From Fibrobacteria bacterium (lineage in GTDB: Bacteria; Fibrobacterota; Chitinivibrionia; Chitinivibrionales; FEN-1185), in NCBI GenBank assembly GCA_037447435.1, contig JBBIGR010000002.1:1-64000 (forward strand): DNA of 64,000 bases, given 5' to 3'. A program made the position numbers. Below, one piece after another: positions 3,001 through 9,000 of this stretch (the first letter of the stretch is position 1; the number at the start of each line of letters is the position of its first letter).

Positions 3001-6000
3001 TGTGAAGCCAAAACGGCCGCACCCGCCATTCCCCGGGAACCGCAAATCATCATCGCGACGCCATGATCGAACTTAGACCCGTCGGGTTTGCGCGGGGGTA
3101 ACAATTCCTTAAAATCGGGCAATTCCGGATAAAAGGTTTTATTCGATTGCATGTCGATAAGATCTTTAGGATACCCCAAGTCGCAAATATGCAATCTCCC
3201 GACCACGCTTCGTCCGGGAAAAAAGAATGAACCGATTTTCGGAAATCCCATTGCGACGGTTGTATGCGCATGTATGCACGGGTTCATAGGAAGAGCCTGA
3301 TCGTTATCGAGGCCTGAAGGAGTATCGGCAGCCAAAACCCGTACCCCCGAATCATTGATCGCCTGTATAACCTCGGCGCTGATTCCGTGCGGATCGCCTT
3401 TTATTCCCGTTCCGAGTACCGCATCGATTATCAAACTGCATTTATCAATGGACACCAAATCCGCAACATCGTCCAAGACCATAAAATTTCCCTTAATGGA
3501 ATCGTAATGATCAAATGCCATTTTGGCTTCGCCCTGCAGCGTCTCCGGTTGACATAACGCATAGCACATGACGGAATACCCTGCCTCGACGAGTAATGAT
3601 GCGACGGAAAATCCGTCGCCGCCGTTATTACCCTTGCCGCAGAATACCGAAATGTCTCCGGCTTTGGGATCGGGCGCAAGTTCACGGGCAATATCGTAGA
3701 GGCCTTTTGCCGCTTTATTCATATACGCATACCCGATTTCGTGATTGCCGGCTATTGCCATTCCGTCTATTTTCCTCATTTGTGCGACAGAGAGAACAGT
3801 GATCATGGCATATCCTTTACATGTGATTGTTAATTCGCTTTTGCATGTTCGGTCCCACTCATCGGCGATGTGCTCGGGGACGCACGATAATAGTATAATT
3901 TCCTCCCGCCCTCGTGGCAAATAAAGAACAAGTATGGGTTTGAATCCGGGAACAAAGTATTTTGATACTGCGATTTTCAGTATCCCTTTTCTACACTTTT
4001 ATTTTTTTTGCGTGGTGTTTTTTATGCACCGATTATTCATTGCAATTGATTTTCCGGACAAAACCAGGGACGACCTGGCAAACCTTTGTTTCGGTATTCC
4101 CGGCGCCCGGTGGACATCAAAGGACCAAATGCATTGTACCATCCGGTTTATCGGCGATACCGACGATGCGGAGCTCGAGGAGACTATTGACATTCTAGAA
4201 AGCGTCAACCGCTCCCGTTTTTCGCTGAACATTAAAGGTGTGGGATATTTTCCGCCGCGACGGAAACCGAACATTATTTGGGCTGGTATCGAGCTTTCGG
4301 AGCCGTTTAGCGAATTGAAAGATTCCATTGAACTGCGTATGCAGGAACTCGGGTACGAGAACGAGGAGCGGAAATACCATCCTCATATTACCCTTGCGCG
4401 TCTCAGACAAGAATCTCCGATTGACAGGATTATGGGCTTCATTTCCGCAAATGCCTTGCTCAAATTCCCGGACATCCCGATCAATGAATTCCATTTATAC
4501 TCAAGTACGCTGACGCCGGATGGCGCAGTACACACAAAAGAAGCGTCATTTTCCCTTATTTGAATCCAGAATCCGCTTTTTTATCGCTTTGCGTTTTTCC
4601 ATGAATTCGAATGCGCTGTTTGCGGTTTGGTTGACGATACGATTTTCCGGAAATCCGACGGTTTGGAGCAGAGGGCGGACGGAATTGTCGAGCCCGATTT
4701 CACCGATTGCATGCGCATCGGAATTGATGGCAATGAGGCATCCGACCGAATTGCAAACCGCAAGATATTCCATCATCAATTCTTTTGAAACGCGGTTGTT
4801 CAATATTTTTGAGTTGTTGCATTCGAGCGCCACGCCATGCTCTTTTGCAAATAATGCAAGCTCCTTAAAATCAACCGGATATTCCACGTCCTCGGGATGC
4901 GTCACGATATCGACAAACGCGTTTTTCTCGAGGGCCCTGATCAAAAGCCCGGTATTGTGCGCTACGGTCTGTTTTTTAGGCAAATGGGGATGCAATCCCA
5001 ACAACACAATGTCGACCCATTGCAAATACCGCATTGGAAAATCGATTTCCCCGTTTTCTCCCGCGATGTTGCATTCCATACCTTTAATCAGCCGGATGCC
5101 CGGAACCGGATCGAATAACCGGTCGAAAAAAGTGCTTGGGGTCGTGCTTTTGAGTACGGGCCCATGGTCGGTAAGTGCAAGCGCGGTCAAACCGAGTTTC
5201 TTTGCCGCAGTAAGCATTTCTATGACACTGTGTAGGCCGCATTGGCTGAAATGCGTATGCGAATGAAAGTCGACTTCGAGCATATGGTAATACCTTTTCT
5301 ACTGGATTTAAGAACAAAAATATACTTTAAGCGCAAAAAAAACCGCTGCAAGGCATTTGCAGCGGTCAATTCAATTATCCGGAAAAAGGATTTGGTTATT
5401 TACTTATGCAGATTTGCCCTCGAACGGTTTCGCTTCCCACGGACAGGACAAAGAGATACGTACCGCGACCGACTTTACCGCCTCCCGAAGTTTGACAATT
5501 CCAAACAAGCTCGGTTGAAGACCAGATTTTCGCACCGCTGAGCGCATGGACCGCAAGATGCGTTTTTTCGCTATTTATCTTGTCGACATCAAAATGAACG
5601 AACGGAGAATTCGCCTCATGCCGAATGCTTACACGGAGCCCGATTTTTTCCGCCGAAAGCCCGCTGTGGGTTACCGTCACGTCGGGGTACGGCGGCGCAA
5701 GATTGACGATATCCATATTGTTCGGATCGTTGGTCCCAAGTTTATACGATCCCGTGGCCGCAAGATTGAACACGTTTCGGGCCGCAGTTTCACGATCGGC
5801 CGGTAATCCGTTCGCTTTAAGCAGCAGCATGCCCTGATAGTCTGCCGCGACCATATCTTTACTTGCTATAATTGAATACGAAGTGTTTGTCGGGTTTCCG
5901 AAAGGGCCGTCGTTGGTACGCATCAATATGGCGTCGATAAGTACCAACACCTGTTTGTTTTTCAATGTGGGCTGGCTGCTGATGATAGAAAGCGACGGGC

Positions 6001-9000
6001 TCGCGGCATTGTAATAATAGGCATGCATGGCAGACTGGTCGGGCTGACCCAAGACAACGATAGTTCCCATCATGTTCTTAAGCGACAATGATACGCCGGC
6101 GATATCGGAACGCGTTGCCCAGCATACGGGCATATTGATGATATAATCCACATTGACGATAGGGTCCTGGAACTTGCAGGCGCTGCTGCCGATGGTAAAC
6201 CCGGGATTACCCGACGAAGCCGGCTTATCGTTATTGTGTTGGGAAATATTGGCTGCCGGAAATTTTCCGTTCAGCATATATTGAAGCCCCTTGATCAGAG
6301 ATGCCTTGACAAGCATATACGGGGTTTTAACCGTATTCACCTGATCGGTATTGCCGTTGTAGCTGCCGCTCGAACCGTTGTATTTGATGGCGATTTTTGT
6401 CGTTGACGTAACCGGCTTGGGAAATAGCGCTTCATATGCCGCGGCCTTGACAGATTGCCCCGTAAGATTCATTATGGCCTGGTCGACCATTTCCTGGATT
6501 TTAGCTTCGTCCGCTTTGCCGGCGACGTAGCATTGCGTGTCTTTGACAATAACGACTTTCGATTTAGGCGACTGCGCAAATACGTCACGCTTCAACACGG
6601 GCGACAGGGACAACGCCGTTGTTGCCGCTGAAGCGGTCTTAAGAAAATCTCGACGTTTCATATGACACCTTTTTTGGGTTACACGGTTACTTGACTGCGG
6701 CAATCTTGGTTTGAAAGGATTTTAAAAACTTGTCGGACGCATCGACCGATTCAAGACAAGACGAAAAACTTGAAAAAGTAAACTCGCAATAAAATTGCTG
6801 AAAATGCCCGAATGTCATATTCCCGTACATTGAAGAGGTGTCGACCATTGCAACATCCTGTGAAAAAGACGGAGACAGAACCGGTTTTGTCACATCATTC
6901 AATCGCATCCTGTATACATTGGTTGCCTTTGCAGCTGTTCCGAAGTCCAAAATCCAAATTTTGCAAATACTGTCGCCGTGCTCGACAAATTGAATCGCCG
7001 CCCGAACCATACCGGAATCCACAAACTTTTTCCCGGCCCCGTTTACCGCGGCGTAAAAGGCATTACTCGTGGAATATTCGGTATATCCATGCGTCGAATC
7101 GAGCGTCCAGCCGGCAACATCGGTATTGCCAAATTTGATTTGTGATAACGCAATTACATTACCTGCAGTATTTGCCGTGGATGTCGGCGAAGTGCATGCG
7201 CATAATAGCGCAACGACACATTGAACCGTGATAATAATCCTGTCTCTTTTTTTCATGATACACGCACCCTTTCTGATATGATTCCCCGATTATTAAAACT
7301 GCGAACTATGGATAATATAAAGCAATTTTGAGCAACTATCAACATTTAATAACAAAATATTTAAATTTATTTTAAAAATAATAAATTTTATAATTCATGT
7401 TTATTTATCCGAAGCATCTAACATTACCAGCAATTATTTAATAAAATTTTTAAAAAACAAGTAATAAGCAATGTACTGTTTGATTCAGTAATGAAAATTC
7501 GCAGGAGGACAGGATGATGGGATGAAAATCAAAAGGGCGCAAAATTTTGCGCCCCTACAGAATGCAAAATGAAATAAAAAAAAGCAAGGCCGTAAGGCCT
7601 TGCTTTTTTTATTCTAACTCGCCTCATGCTTCCCATGGGATAAGTTTTCTTTATGGATTATCTACGCAAAAGCGTAGATAATCCATAAATATAAGCACTT
7701 AAAACCAGCTACTTACTTTTTGCCTTTTTTCTTGGCAACAGGCTTCTTTGCAGCAGCCTTTTTAGCAGCAGGTTTCTTTGCAGCGAGGATGTCTTCGACT
7801 GCAGCCTGAGCTGCGGCCAAACGGGCGATAGGAACGCGGAACGGTGAGCATGAAACATAGTTCATACCGATTTTATGGCAGAACTTGACTGAATCCGCAT
7901 CTCCGCCGTGTTCGCCGCAAATACCCACTTTGAGTTTTTCGCGGACCGAACGACCACGCTGTATTCCGATTTTGATAAGCTCGCCGACACCGTCGAAATC
8001 GATTGTCTGGAACGGGTCGATGGGCAGCACTTTCTTTGTGAGATAATCAGGCAGGAAGCTGCCGATATCGTCGCGGGAGAAACCGAAGCTCATCTGCGTA
8101 AGGTCGTTTGTACCAAACGAGAAGAACTCGGCTGTTTCCGCCATTTTATTGGCCAACAAAGCTGCGCGCGGAATTTCGATCATGGTTCCGTACATGTACG
8201 TGATTTTCTTGACACCCAGTTTTGCGCAAACTTCTTTGTAAACCTTGTCCACAAGCACCTTCTGGTCGTTGATTTCGTTGACCGAACAGGTGACCGGGAT
8301 CATGATTTCAGGGAAAGCCTTCTTGCCTTCTTTAATGAGCTCGCCTGCAGCTTCGAGAATAGCACCAACCTGCATCTCGGTGATTTCAGGATAGGTGATA
8401 CCAAGTCGAACACCGCGATGGCCAAGCATCGGGTTGTTTTCTTTGAGAGATTCTGCGCGACGATGAAGTTCGGTTGCGTCGATATGCAATTCTTTGCCGA
8501 GTGCGTCGAGTTTGTCTTTGGCATGCGGCACGAATTCATGAAGCGGAGGATCGAGCAAGCGAATGGTAACCGGGAGGCCGTTTAAGGCTTCCATGGTCGC
8601 CTTGATGTCTTTCTTGACGAAAGGAGCAAGCTCGGCAAGAGCCGCTTTGCGTTCTTCAAGGGTTTTGGACATGATCATTTTGCGGAGAAGGAACAACGGT
8701 TTGTCGGACCCTTCGCCGTAGAACATGTGTTCGGTTCTGAACAGACCGATACCTTCTGCGCCGAACTCGACTGCCTTTTTGGCATCTTTCGGGGTATCCG
8801 CATTGGTACGGACATTGAGAACGCGGACTTTGTCCACGAGTTTCATAAGGTCGGTGAATGTCGTGTTCTTGGCAATGTCGATTTCAACAAGCGGAAGGCT
8901 GCCTTCATAGACCGTGCCTTTTGTTCCGTTGAGCGTGATCCATTCGCCTTCCTTAATTGTTTTGCCGTTCTTTGTTGTAAACGATTTGTTGTCGTCTGCA

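Follow-up and report, generated by a model that had tools for sequence, protein, structure and literature searches.

The closest described relatives of the proteins considered here are the enzymes of the LarA family (Lar_N, PF09861; 5HUQ, 9EIA, 7S91, 4NAR and 9Q3J). DUF362 proteins share with them the fold of the LarA N-domain and equivalents of Lys184 and His200, but lack the LarA C-domain and His108, and have members bearing export signals, C-terminal sorting-type domains (CTDs) and carbohydrate-binding modules (CBMs); the clade studied here additionally lacks His174. This kinship is already known at the Pfam-clan level, both families falling in clan CL0471 in the passages cited from PMC11770544. 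Excerpts of PMC12393405 describe two single-His LarA homologues, LarA Sp and LarA Bw, which carry the nickel-pincer nucleotide (NPN) on Lys without His174 and for which a carbohydrate link is proposed; both homologues, octamers for which those excerpts describe no export, differ from DUF362 in retaining His108 and the C-domain. The NPN-dependent aldo-keto reductase NphT (PMC13524815) likewise offers non-racemase NPN sugar chemistry, lar adjacency and a Lys/His motif, but is a TIM barrel; DUF362 is not named in the text of that paper or in 12 of its 17 supplementary files. Known nickel enzymes number just a dozen (PMC13524815). According to passages of PMC11796402, larBCE occurs in the absence of larA in about 15% of the genomes analysed, the client being unknown. 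Fusion of DUF362 to CBMs has already been noted in DUF362-CBM9-dockerin proteins (PMC5742341), the relevant passages of which tie DUF362 to Fe-S proteins and name no LarA link or cofactor. In the open literature searched, we found no paper assigning NPN to DUF362. By its fold, residues and gene partners, the large DUF362 family would be suited to be the client of orphan larBCE genes.

We analysed a window of 64,000 nucleotides at the start of contig JBBIGR010000002.1 of a Fibrobacteria bacterium, a polysaccharide degrader in which the majority of about 15 DUF362 proteins are built for export. The window contains a two-gene operon, with a lipoprotein gene first and a DUF362 gene following 25 bp downstream, whose features are as follows.

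5341..5367, minus strand: intrinsic terminator candidate at the end of the two-gene unit (11-pair stem and T tail)
5396..6661, minus strand: TAT-DUF362-CTD gene (421 aa, ATG at 6661, N-terminus MKRRDFLK)
5399..5650, minus strand: T9SS type-A-like C-terminal beta-sandwich (residues 338-421)
5696..6562, minus strand: DUF362 domain with predicted LarA N-domain fold (about residues 34-322; PF04015 and structure model)
6023..6025, minus strand: His213, equivalent of LarA His200 and candidate Ni ligand (39/43 homologues)
6077..6079, minus strand: Lys195, equivalent of LarA Lys184 and candidate thioamide tether (43/43 homologues)
6113..6115, minus strand: Thr183, at the position of LarA catalytic His174 (His in 8/43 rows)
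6566..6661, minus strand: twin-arginine signal peptide (about residues 1-32, with a predicted cleavage site)
6687..7256, minus strand: partner lipoprotein, DUF6599-like (189 aa)
7314..7342, minus strand: sigma-70-like promoter candidate (10/12 consensus, a match count not above that of shuffles)

Our preferred explanation, to which we give a probability of roughly 45% as a whole, is that the exported DUF362 proteins are NPN-dependent oxidoreductases delivered by Tat and then through the T9SS (type IX secretion system).

The window protein aligns with 43 homologues over its full length and matches PF04015 at residues 161-276 (E 1e-11, 45.6 bits against a cut-off of 24). Its modelled DUF362 domain (pLDDT 88.6; residues 1-29 of the protein are of low pLDDT) reproduces the survey's finding of a LarA fold: in VIA-align, five LarA-family chains head the matches (Z 13.8-12.2, 190-192 residues, rmsd 3.0-3.5), the next-best fold scoring Z 8.9. 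For a model of the operon-type DUF362 the corresponding values are Z 15.4 and 5.0, and LarA chains alone stand out as fold matches for both models. A Pfam search of the window protein gave no match to Lar_N, and a PDB sequence search with DUF362 profiles matched no solved DUF362 or LarA chain, so that the DUF362-LarA link rests on folds and profiles. The C-terminus of the modelled protein is a beta-sandwich, and the LarA C-terminal substrate domain is absent.

Residue equivalences for the Lys and His positions were set by profile alignment rather than by residue-level superposition, and place DUF362 His175/Lys185/His202 on LarA His174/Lys184/His200 (family-level E 3.7e-4). The profile of the window clade aligns with LarA weakly (E 0.1), with Lys195 falling on the LarA Lys. 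The tether Lys is invariant in three DUF362 alignments (43/43, 114/114 and 131/131), accompanied by the downstream His. The His-Lys-His pattern previously ascribed to these proteins thus holds for the Lys and the nickel His, but the window protein is without the upstream His. The rows that do bear it branch outside the window protein, implying that His174 was lost in the window clade; an equivalent is present in most other DUF362 clades. The counterpart of LarA His108, previously unmapped, can be located by profile alignment, and no DUF362 His aligns on it: in operon-type DUF362 the position is a variable Asp/Gly preceding the invariant Arg112, and the window clade is not alignable there. Because of this fold, these residues and the gene partners described below, DUF362 would be a stand-alone LarA cofactor-binding domain with NPN tethered via the conserved Lys and the conserved His on nickel. 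NPN binding is probable for the family and somewhat favoured for the exported clade. It can be tested by an established assay, a gain of 450 Da on Lys.

The link to cofactor synthesis is clearest in one family of 127 genomes (f13), of which 46 have DUF362 and larC, 7 DUF362 only, 1 larC only and 73 neither; 46 of the 47 larC genomes therefore carry DUF362. Lar_N is matched in one f13 genome, and that match is a DUF362 ORF, so f13 is without LarA. A recurrent operon order in this family is TAT-DUF362, tatA, tatC, larB, larC, larE, and in 28 of 39 larC genomes (three genera) tatC and larC are no more than 6 kb apart, this being the sole tatC in 20; a dedicated tatC was rejected as a strict marker, since tatC occurs in 93/127 f13 genomes. 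Direct operons of DUF362 with larBCE are found in six phyla (five besides that of f13). Among 80 GTDB DUF362 loci, larC lies within 10 kb in 11 (8 outside Fibrobacteraceae), LarA being found in just one of the 11. Within a Bacteroidota sample, DUF362 occurs in 29/33 larC genomes versus 27/268 others, and one cytoplasmic subtype is found in 25 genomes, 25/25 of them larC-positive; larC occurs in 7/11 genomes with the leader-type proteins described below versus 26/290 others. These co-occurrence counts treat related genomes and are not independent, cyanobacteria being represented by one control genome. Phylum-wide tallies also counted the unpublished genome G216, on which none of our conclusions depends. 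The converse, larC without DUF362, is seen in 4/5 genomes of genus g10 and in one f16 genome, which has a group-22 NPN isomerase.

At the family level, then, the sequence-based link between DUF362 and lar genes is strong, but many genomes that encode exported DUF362 lack it. Of the 30 best loci from Bacteroidota, 19 encode an exported DUF362 with an intact His-Lys-His in a genome where no larC was found, as was also the case for 24/50 genomes with a Fibrobacter-type protein (larB being found in 1 of these 24) and for 4/11 leader-type genomes. In two Fibrobacter genomes DUF362-tatA-tatC persists with no larBCE after it, and B. thetaiotaomicron has DUF362 and no larC. In Akkermansia, DUF362 copies with a Sec signal sit in lar operons. 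The host genome encodes larB, larC and larE, as reported earlier, together with larA, tatC, sprA and porV; none of these genes is linked to a DUF362 gene, and the host has its own LarA as an NPN client. The many lar-less genomes and this lack of linkage in the host would fit if the family, or at least its exported clades, used a cofactor other than NPN, be it Fe-S, a plain metal or a pyridinium nucleotide without nickel, the lar link being confined to some subfamilies. The Fibrobacter type also has a conserved Cys-Asp-Cys, some DUF362 proteins are fused to ferredoxin domains, and some lar operons (L021, L231, L042) contain an alternative client, a TAT aldo-keto reductase, whose fold has a proven NPN member. 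We nevertheless regard another cofactor as unlikely, given the invariant tether Lys with its downstream His, the larBCE operons in six phyla and the window clade alignment, which contains no conserved Cys set.

Export is indicated at both ends of the window protein. TIGR01409 matches at 18.2 bits (cut-off 16.7), and RRxF is present in 37/43 homologues; the combination of an RRxFLK signal and TatC that marks Tat substrates is found by sequence for the window protein and not for the leader type. PF04015 finds the 13 DUF362 genes counted previously, and a profile built from these adds two more (C9:42881 and C27:58179), making 15. RRxFL signals number not six but 7 of the 13 PF04015 genes and 8 of all 15, probably 9, because the C37 copy lacks its N-terminus and contig C77 opens with the missing part. 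At the C-terminus, a host CTD profile built from non-DUF362 ORFs matches the window CTD (E 3.6e-5), placing it in the same family as 215 other host ORFs (control 1/2437). TAT-bearing homologues exceed the cut-off of TIGR04183, the family of T9SS type-A cargo, which resembles the window protein in its C-terminal beta-sandwich, and the SprA and PorV of that system are encoded in the host genome; the earlier pairing of TAT with a T9SS-type CTD is thereby supported. Where such cargo has a Sec signal, DUF362 proteins have a twin-arginine signal or a three-segment leader. The window protein would thus fold in the cytoplasm, cross the inner membrane via Tat and cross the outer membrane via T9SS, a route we consider likely from its sequence features. 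The CTD could instead be a FlgD-like Ig module leaving the proteins periplasmic, as might be suspected from its position below Pfam and NCBIfam cut-offs (with a weak CHU_C match), from VIA-align scores to T9SS CTD chains (Z 7.1-7.3) that are tied with other Ig folds, and from the Sec signals given for T9SS cargo in the passages of a review (PMC9127263). The membership of a CTD family with 215 other ORFs, the presence of sprA and porV and the relatives over the TIGR04183 cut-off make this improbable. Credible TAT+CTD proteins number about 6 among 223 host CTD ORFs, and 5 of these are DUF362. We found no demonstrated case of Tat-T9SS cargo in the open literature searched, and no description there of the TAT-to-T9SS expansion, the tatAC operon or the leader.

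Three large host DUF362 proteins contain CBM6/35 and F5/8-C domains, as described before, with glycoside-hydrolase/lyase neighbours seen for those of C4 and C6. They were also called membrane-anchored, which is uncertain because their leader, lacking a twin arginine, ends in a probable signal-peptidase site. The conserved leader of the CBM-fused forms (RVxPKPSRxxYPC) has three segments and gave no Pfam or NCBIfam family match, no stand-alone short homologue and no Atlas hit at 0.9; RRxF occurs in only 3/151 leader-type sequences, which leaves the proposed TAT export of these forms unsupported. The C48 DUF362 gene has an in-frame stop within the leader; a contig from the run that is probably its source shows this stop too but is no independent evidence. 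Since 106/223 CTD-bearing host ORFs have another CTD ORF within 3 kb, the enzyme setting is weak evidence, and location inside such loci was discounted as a functional argument. The window gene has no CBM, and there are no CAZyme neighbours around 5396-6661.

The chemistry is most plausibly a one-way, hydride-abstracting oxidation of sugars or hydroxy acids, with reoxidation via Fe-S partners. This direction is favoured by ferredoxin, polyferredoxin and lactonase partners: a NapH-type polyferredoxin adjoins periplasmic DUF362 at host C29 and at 9 related loci, 3/150 DUF362 relatives are lactonase fusions, and the only lactonase match of the host lies two genes past the C25 copy. There are few such links to lactonases, and no His174 equivalent is present in the C25 copy. 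PQQ apo-dehydrogenases and cellobiose dehydrogenase, with other folds and cofactors, provide an analogy for exported oxidation of sugars to lactones, the former also for apo-enzyme in non-producers. The epimerisation of polysaccharides outside the cell proposed earlier, akin to that of LarA homologues on sugar acids, fits the LarA fold and cofactor residues and the CBM6/35/9 and F5/8-C fusions; an isomerase, needing no electron acceptor, would suit a secreted enzyme of an anaerobe, and single-His LarA homologues load NPN and are proposed as one-way epimerases (excerpts of PMC12393405). It is poorly supported because His108 is not kept in the family and His174 is absent from the window protein. 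Since DUF362 keeps no more than one of the two catalytic His of LarA (neither in the window clade) and has no LarA C-domain, CBMs are a minority trait (7/50 scanned relatives) and the partners are suggestive of oxidation, we consider an epimerase quite improbable; redox rather than epimerase chemistry is an even call. If these proteins do hold NPN, the exported branch with CBMs would have no precedent in the literature searched as NPN chemistry outside the cytoplasm; it could also supply an oxidative step when polysaccharides are degraded anaerobically, and would be a case of Tat feeding T9SS.

The window copy, having lost His174 too, would be a changed-site member of the family, with another base or substrate or a role as cofactor carrier. 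Its clade, and perhaps other exported copies, could be NPN carriers or scavengers, lar-less bacteria loading cofactor from neighbours, much as E. coli loads an exported apo-protein with PQQ made by its neighbours. The Lys and nickel His kept in the absence of both catalytic His, and the intact motifs of lar-less genomes, accord with this; such intact exported copies, common where no larB or larC is found, also leave loading in the cytoplasm unsupported as a general rule. Signal type tracks lar status, larC being found in 20/25 TAT-copy genomes of the Fibrobacter-type set versus 2/18 with Sec or lipoprotein copies, on our own reading of the N-termini and with a Sec set mostly of one lineage. 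The carrier role is doubtful given that free NPN is labile (a passage on labile holo-proteins in PMC11796402), that no NPN transporter is identified and that most TAT+CTD relatives retain the upstream His.

For the oxidoreductase, one DUF362 clade would have expanded for export in the host lineage, and lar-less copies raise the matter of cofactor sharing. A wider joint reading, which we hold to be unlikely, would make DUF362 the principal client so far missing for orphan larBCE genes and part of a trans-envelope NPN system of one clade: Tat or the RVxPKPSRxxYPC leader, with T9SS, would secrete surface enzymes oxidising sugars, periplasmic DUF362 and membrane polyferredoxin would carry electrons inward, and lar-less bacteria would use scavenged cofactor, NPN being a shared community cofactor.

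The partner lipoprotein may be a helper of the window DUF362 protein. Adjacency to DUF362 had been noted for five paralogues, and in fact all 7 in the host genome adjoin a DUF362 gene (the C77 case by deduction). The window lipoprotein gives no Pfam match, PF20244 (DUF6599) included; 3 relatives exceed the PF20244 cut-off, and in ESM Atlas it is matched at 0.94 by a cluster in which 38% of the members carry DUF6599. Counts based on the partner profile are those of its first round, the second having drifted into CTDs. A conserved cluster, which would also suit a carrier role, joins DUF362 and the lipoprotein to a beta-propeller protein of about 1200 aa. The latter resembles SprA only over one short piece in one relative; it has a Phe end like that of outer-membrane barrels, and we would guess that it contains a barrel.

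The window, on contig C2, carries a gene for a putatively exported DUF362 protein paired with a lipoprotein gene, and the pair is bounded by a promoter-like site and a candidate terminator.

5396-6661, minus strand: TAT-DUF362-CTD gene, 421 aa, its DUF362 domain lying between a twin-arginine signal and a C-terminal beta-sandwich (candidate T9SS-type C-terminal domain, CTD)
ending 25 bp upstream of the DUF362 gene, minus strand: lipoprotein gene, 189 aa, the partner of the pair
7342-7314, minus strand: promoter-like site, consensus match only
5367-5341, minus strand: candidate terminator, consensus match only

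As we read the ORFs, the flanking genes are ppdK-like and PHP-like, not CAZymes. The stretch separating ppdK from the lipoprotein gene has several hairpins at 7533-7690, one of them a strong terminator (7577-7610). The 5.05 Mb genome contains the 13 DUF362 genes of the survey's finding when searched with PF04015, and a profile built from those 13 adds two more, giving 15. Six TAT signals had been counted, but RRxFL is present on eight of the 15 proteins and probably on a ninth, whose N-terminus was found at the start of contig C77; four others have a different, non-TAT leader and two are cytoplasmic ferredoxin fusions. The partner lipoprotein resembles DUF6599, and all seven of its paralogues adjoin a DUF362 gene, in keeping with the pairing noted before. 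Among the loci compared, it lies within 400 bp of a DUF362 gene in 15/27 from metagenomes and 12/26 from genomes. Close homologues of the window protein bear the label Chitinispirillaceae, and of 72 genomes searched in the order, 32 have window-type DUF362.

The kinship of DUF362 with the nickel-pincer nucleotide (NPN) enzyme LarA is already in print at clan level, as is the DUF362-CBM fusion; in one paper, DUF362 serves as outgroup because both belong to clan CL0471 (PMC11770544). Our data make DUF362 a real, well-supported candidate for a new branch of NPN proteins, with a putative function. In a model of the window protein from 43 homologues (pLDDT 88.6), 190-192 residues superpose on each of five LarA-family chains (Z 13.8-12.2), and the next fold scores Z 8.9. 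The LarA-like fold proposed earlier is reinforced by a second model, of the operon type (the TAT-DUF362 of Fibrobacter tatA-tatC-larB-larC-larE operons), which also singles out LarA chains (Z 15.4-13.3; next 5.0). Residue numbers for LarA were taken from PDB chains, and profile alignment then places operon-type His175, Lys185 and His202 on LarA His174, Lys184 and His200 (E 3.7e-4, 175 columns). The equivalent of His108, previously unmapped, falls on a variable position of the operon-type profile, with no conserved His. The window-clade profile aligns weakly with LarA (E 0.1) and places Lys195 (43/43 homologues) and His213 (39/43) as in the operon type, while the His174 position holds His in 8/43. 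In a 44-row tree, the TAT-CTD proteins and the leader type (large DUF362 proteins discussed below) form a single clade with support 97/99; the rows that have the His branch off outside the window protein, which makes its loss of His174 a derived trait. Lacking His174 does not keep one LarA homologue from loading NPN (PMC12393405).

From fold, residue pattern, signals and gene partners we infer a mechanism in which NPN would be tethered at the conserved Lys and, with at most one catalytic His, hydride would be abstracted one way only and then relayed by Fe-S partners. For a surface enzyme, which would have to return its electrons, hydride shuttling between sugars, by analogy with NphT, would be an alternative needing no wire. 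The survey's finding read the exported proteins as polysaccharide epimerases; this is possible but the least supported reading, given at most one catalytic His in DUF362 and neither in the window copy, which may use another base or act as a cofactor carrier.

In the genome itself larB, larC and larE are present, as reported before, and together with larA, tatC, sprA and porV they are scattered. Since larA sits among what we read as hexuronate and gluconate catabolism genes, these lar genes say little on DUF362. We searched larC, DUF362 and the LarA N-domain profile (Lar_N) in 255 genomes of the phylum. In a family of 127 genomes labelled Fibrobacter, whose kin genomes are not independent counts, 46 have larC and DUF362, seven DUF362 alone, one larC alone and 73 neither; the one Lar_N match is itself a DUF362 ORF. 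Six fetched loci have one or two TAT-DUF362 genes, tatA, tatC, larB and larC consecutively with larE close, and four further loci show the same order. Three genera contribute 39 larC genomes; 28 of these have a tatC no more than 6 kb from larC, and in 20 it is the sole tatC; tatC overall is present in 93/127 genomes of the family. Two small membrane ORFs that precede DUF362 in one such operon (L021:6569-7272; no NCBIfam match) are candidates for nickel or cofactor transport.

Among the best 80 GTDB loci of the operon type, larC flanks 11, and larB and larE flank 10; eight of the 11 lie outside Fibrobacteraceae (Telmatospirillum and other Alphaproteobacteria, Akkermansia and Verrucomicrobiales, Holophagaceae, Oryzomonas, Acidaminococcus), with LarA in Acidaminococcus only. 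In 301 genomes from the phylum of a Bacteroidetes-labelled genome, DUF362 occurs in 29/33 larC genomes versus 27/268 others. A cytoplasmic subtype, delimited by the span and score of its matches, is carried by 25 of these genomes, all with larC; the ten members retrieved (L263-L272) have no signal and share one motif. The leader type occurs in 11 genomes of this set, seven with larC, versus larC in 26/290. A Bacteroidota locus (L274) combines TAT-DUF362 with larCEB and a polyferredoxin. Of the 14 control genomes, those of Synechococcus and Haloferax combine larC with DUF362 but give no Lar_N match; PMC11796402 lists cyanobacteria among the larBCE orphans, and the recent NCBIfam model NF052623 ('Npun_F2552 family'), a DUF362 subfamily probably cyanobacterial by name, is a candidate for the client there. 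The ORF immediately after larE in G046 (L124:3081-6175) fuses prephenate dehydratase to DUF362 and has a Cys-rich tail.

Other results speak against the link to lar genes. Of 74 non-Fibrobacter genomes with the Fibrobacter-type protein, larC was not found in 24 of the first 50 tested (larB in 1/24), and four of five further ones have it. The best 30 Bacteroidota loci all keep His-Lys-His, and 28 have RRxF; for 19 of the loci larC was not found in the host genome. Neither larC nor larB was found in four leader-type genomes searched, and in two Fibrobacter genomes (96% and 84% complete) DUF362-tatA-tatC is retained but followed by other genes instead of the usual larBCE. By signal type, with N-termini read by eye, larC accompanies TAT copies in 20/25 genomes, Sec/lipoprotein copies in 2/18 and signal-less copies in 4/7; the 18 are mostly Elusimicrobia, and both positives belong to Akkermansia, a lar operon being present in one of them. 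Elusimicrobia loci (L045, L047-L050, L053 and others) encode intact-motif DUF362 with a Sec lipoprotein signal, larB and larC not being found in their genomes. Export thus needs no NPN synthesis of the cell's own; scavenging of the cofactor would account for this, or the use of a different one by some clades. Conversely, four genomes of one genus (G018-G020, G022) have larB and larC with no DUF362 or Lar_N match. Three lar operons contain a TAT aldo-keto reductase with an Fe-S tail and a NapH-type protein (L021:13134-14690, L231:2778-4295, L042:10932-12236); that the aldo-keto reductase fold can bind NPN is shown by NphT (PMC13524815).

In a conserved cluster, seen on contig C29 of this genome, in several order-level genomes and in metagenome loci, the lipoprotein gene and one to several TAT-DUF362-CTD genes stand with genes for a NapH-type polyferredoxin, a periplasmic TAT-DUF362 of ~300 aa and a protein of ~1200 aa. 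The latter (L210:2506-6330, L208:6628-10140, C29:60893-63802) has an N-terminal beta-propeller, ends in Phe, contains a piece faintly resembling SprA and is possibly a dedicated outer-membrane channel. In G064 the cluster shares a contig with larB-larE-larC, ~20 kb apart.

The combination of TAT signal and CTD described before is supported. Refined with DUF362 ORFs left out, a CTD profile matches 223/5962 genome ORFs, among them eight of the 13 DUF362 genes (window protein E 3.6e-5), and 1/2437 internal controls. RRxF occurs in eight of the 223: five DUF362, one deacetylase-like and two doubtful. The TAT-bearing relatives L158, L159, L169 and P0019 score above the TIGR04183 cut-off. Tat would move the folded protein, which T9SS would then release. 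T9SS cargo carries Sec signals according to a review (PMC9127263), and a titles-level literature listing contained no case of Tat-T9SS cargo. The deacetylase-like ORF (L223:672-2072, contig C34), of the histone-deacetylase family, would be a second TAT-plus-T9SS metalloenzyme.

The large CBM-fused proteins had also been assigned to TAT; they bear a different leader instead. In 131 of 151 relatives a hydrophobic N-terminal leader has invariant W, R, K-P, R and P-C in RVxPKPSRxxYPC, with RRxF in 3/151 and a TAT signal replacing the leader in one. The leader has three hydrophobic segments and often ends in Ala-x-Ala, and no family match to it was found; possibly it is a new export or cofactor-loading device. 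The Lys and Ni-His are present in 131/131 and the upstream His in 128. Among 50 relatives scanned (every third of 150), seven have CBM6/9/35 or F5/8-C domains above cut-off, seven a T9SS tail and two a gluconolactonase-like domain (3/150 by separate search); such lactonase links suit aldose oxidation. In this genome the leader profile matches four DUF362 genes only (C6:106243, in L009; C4; C9:42881; C48), and the C48 gene, the largest DUF362-CBM gene (L219:13300-14300), has an in-frame stop inside the leader.
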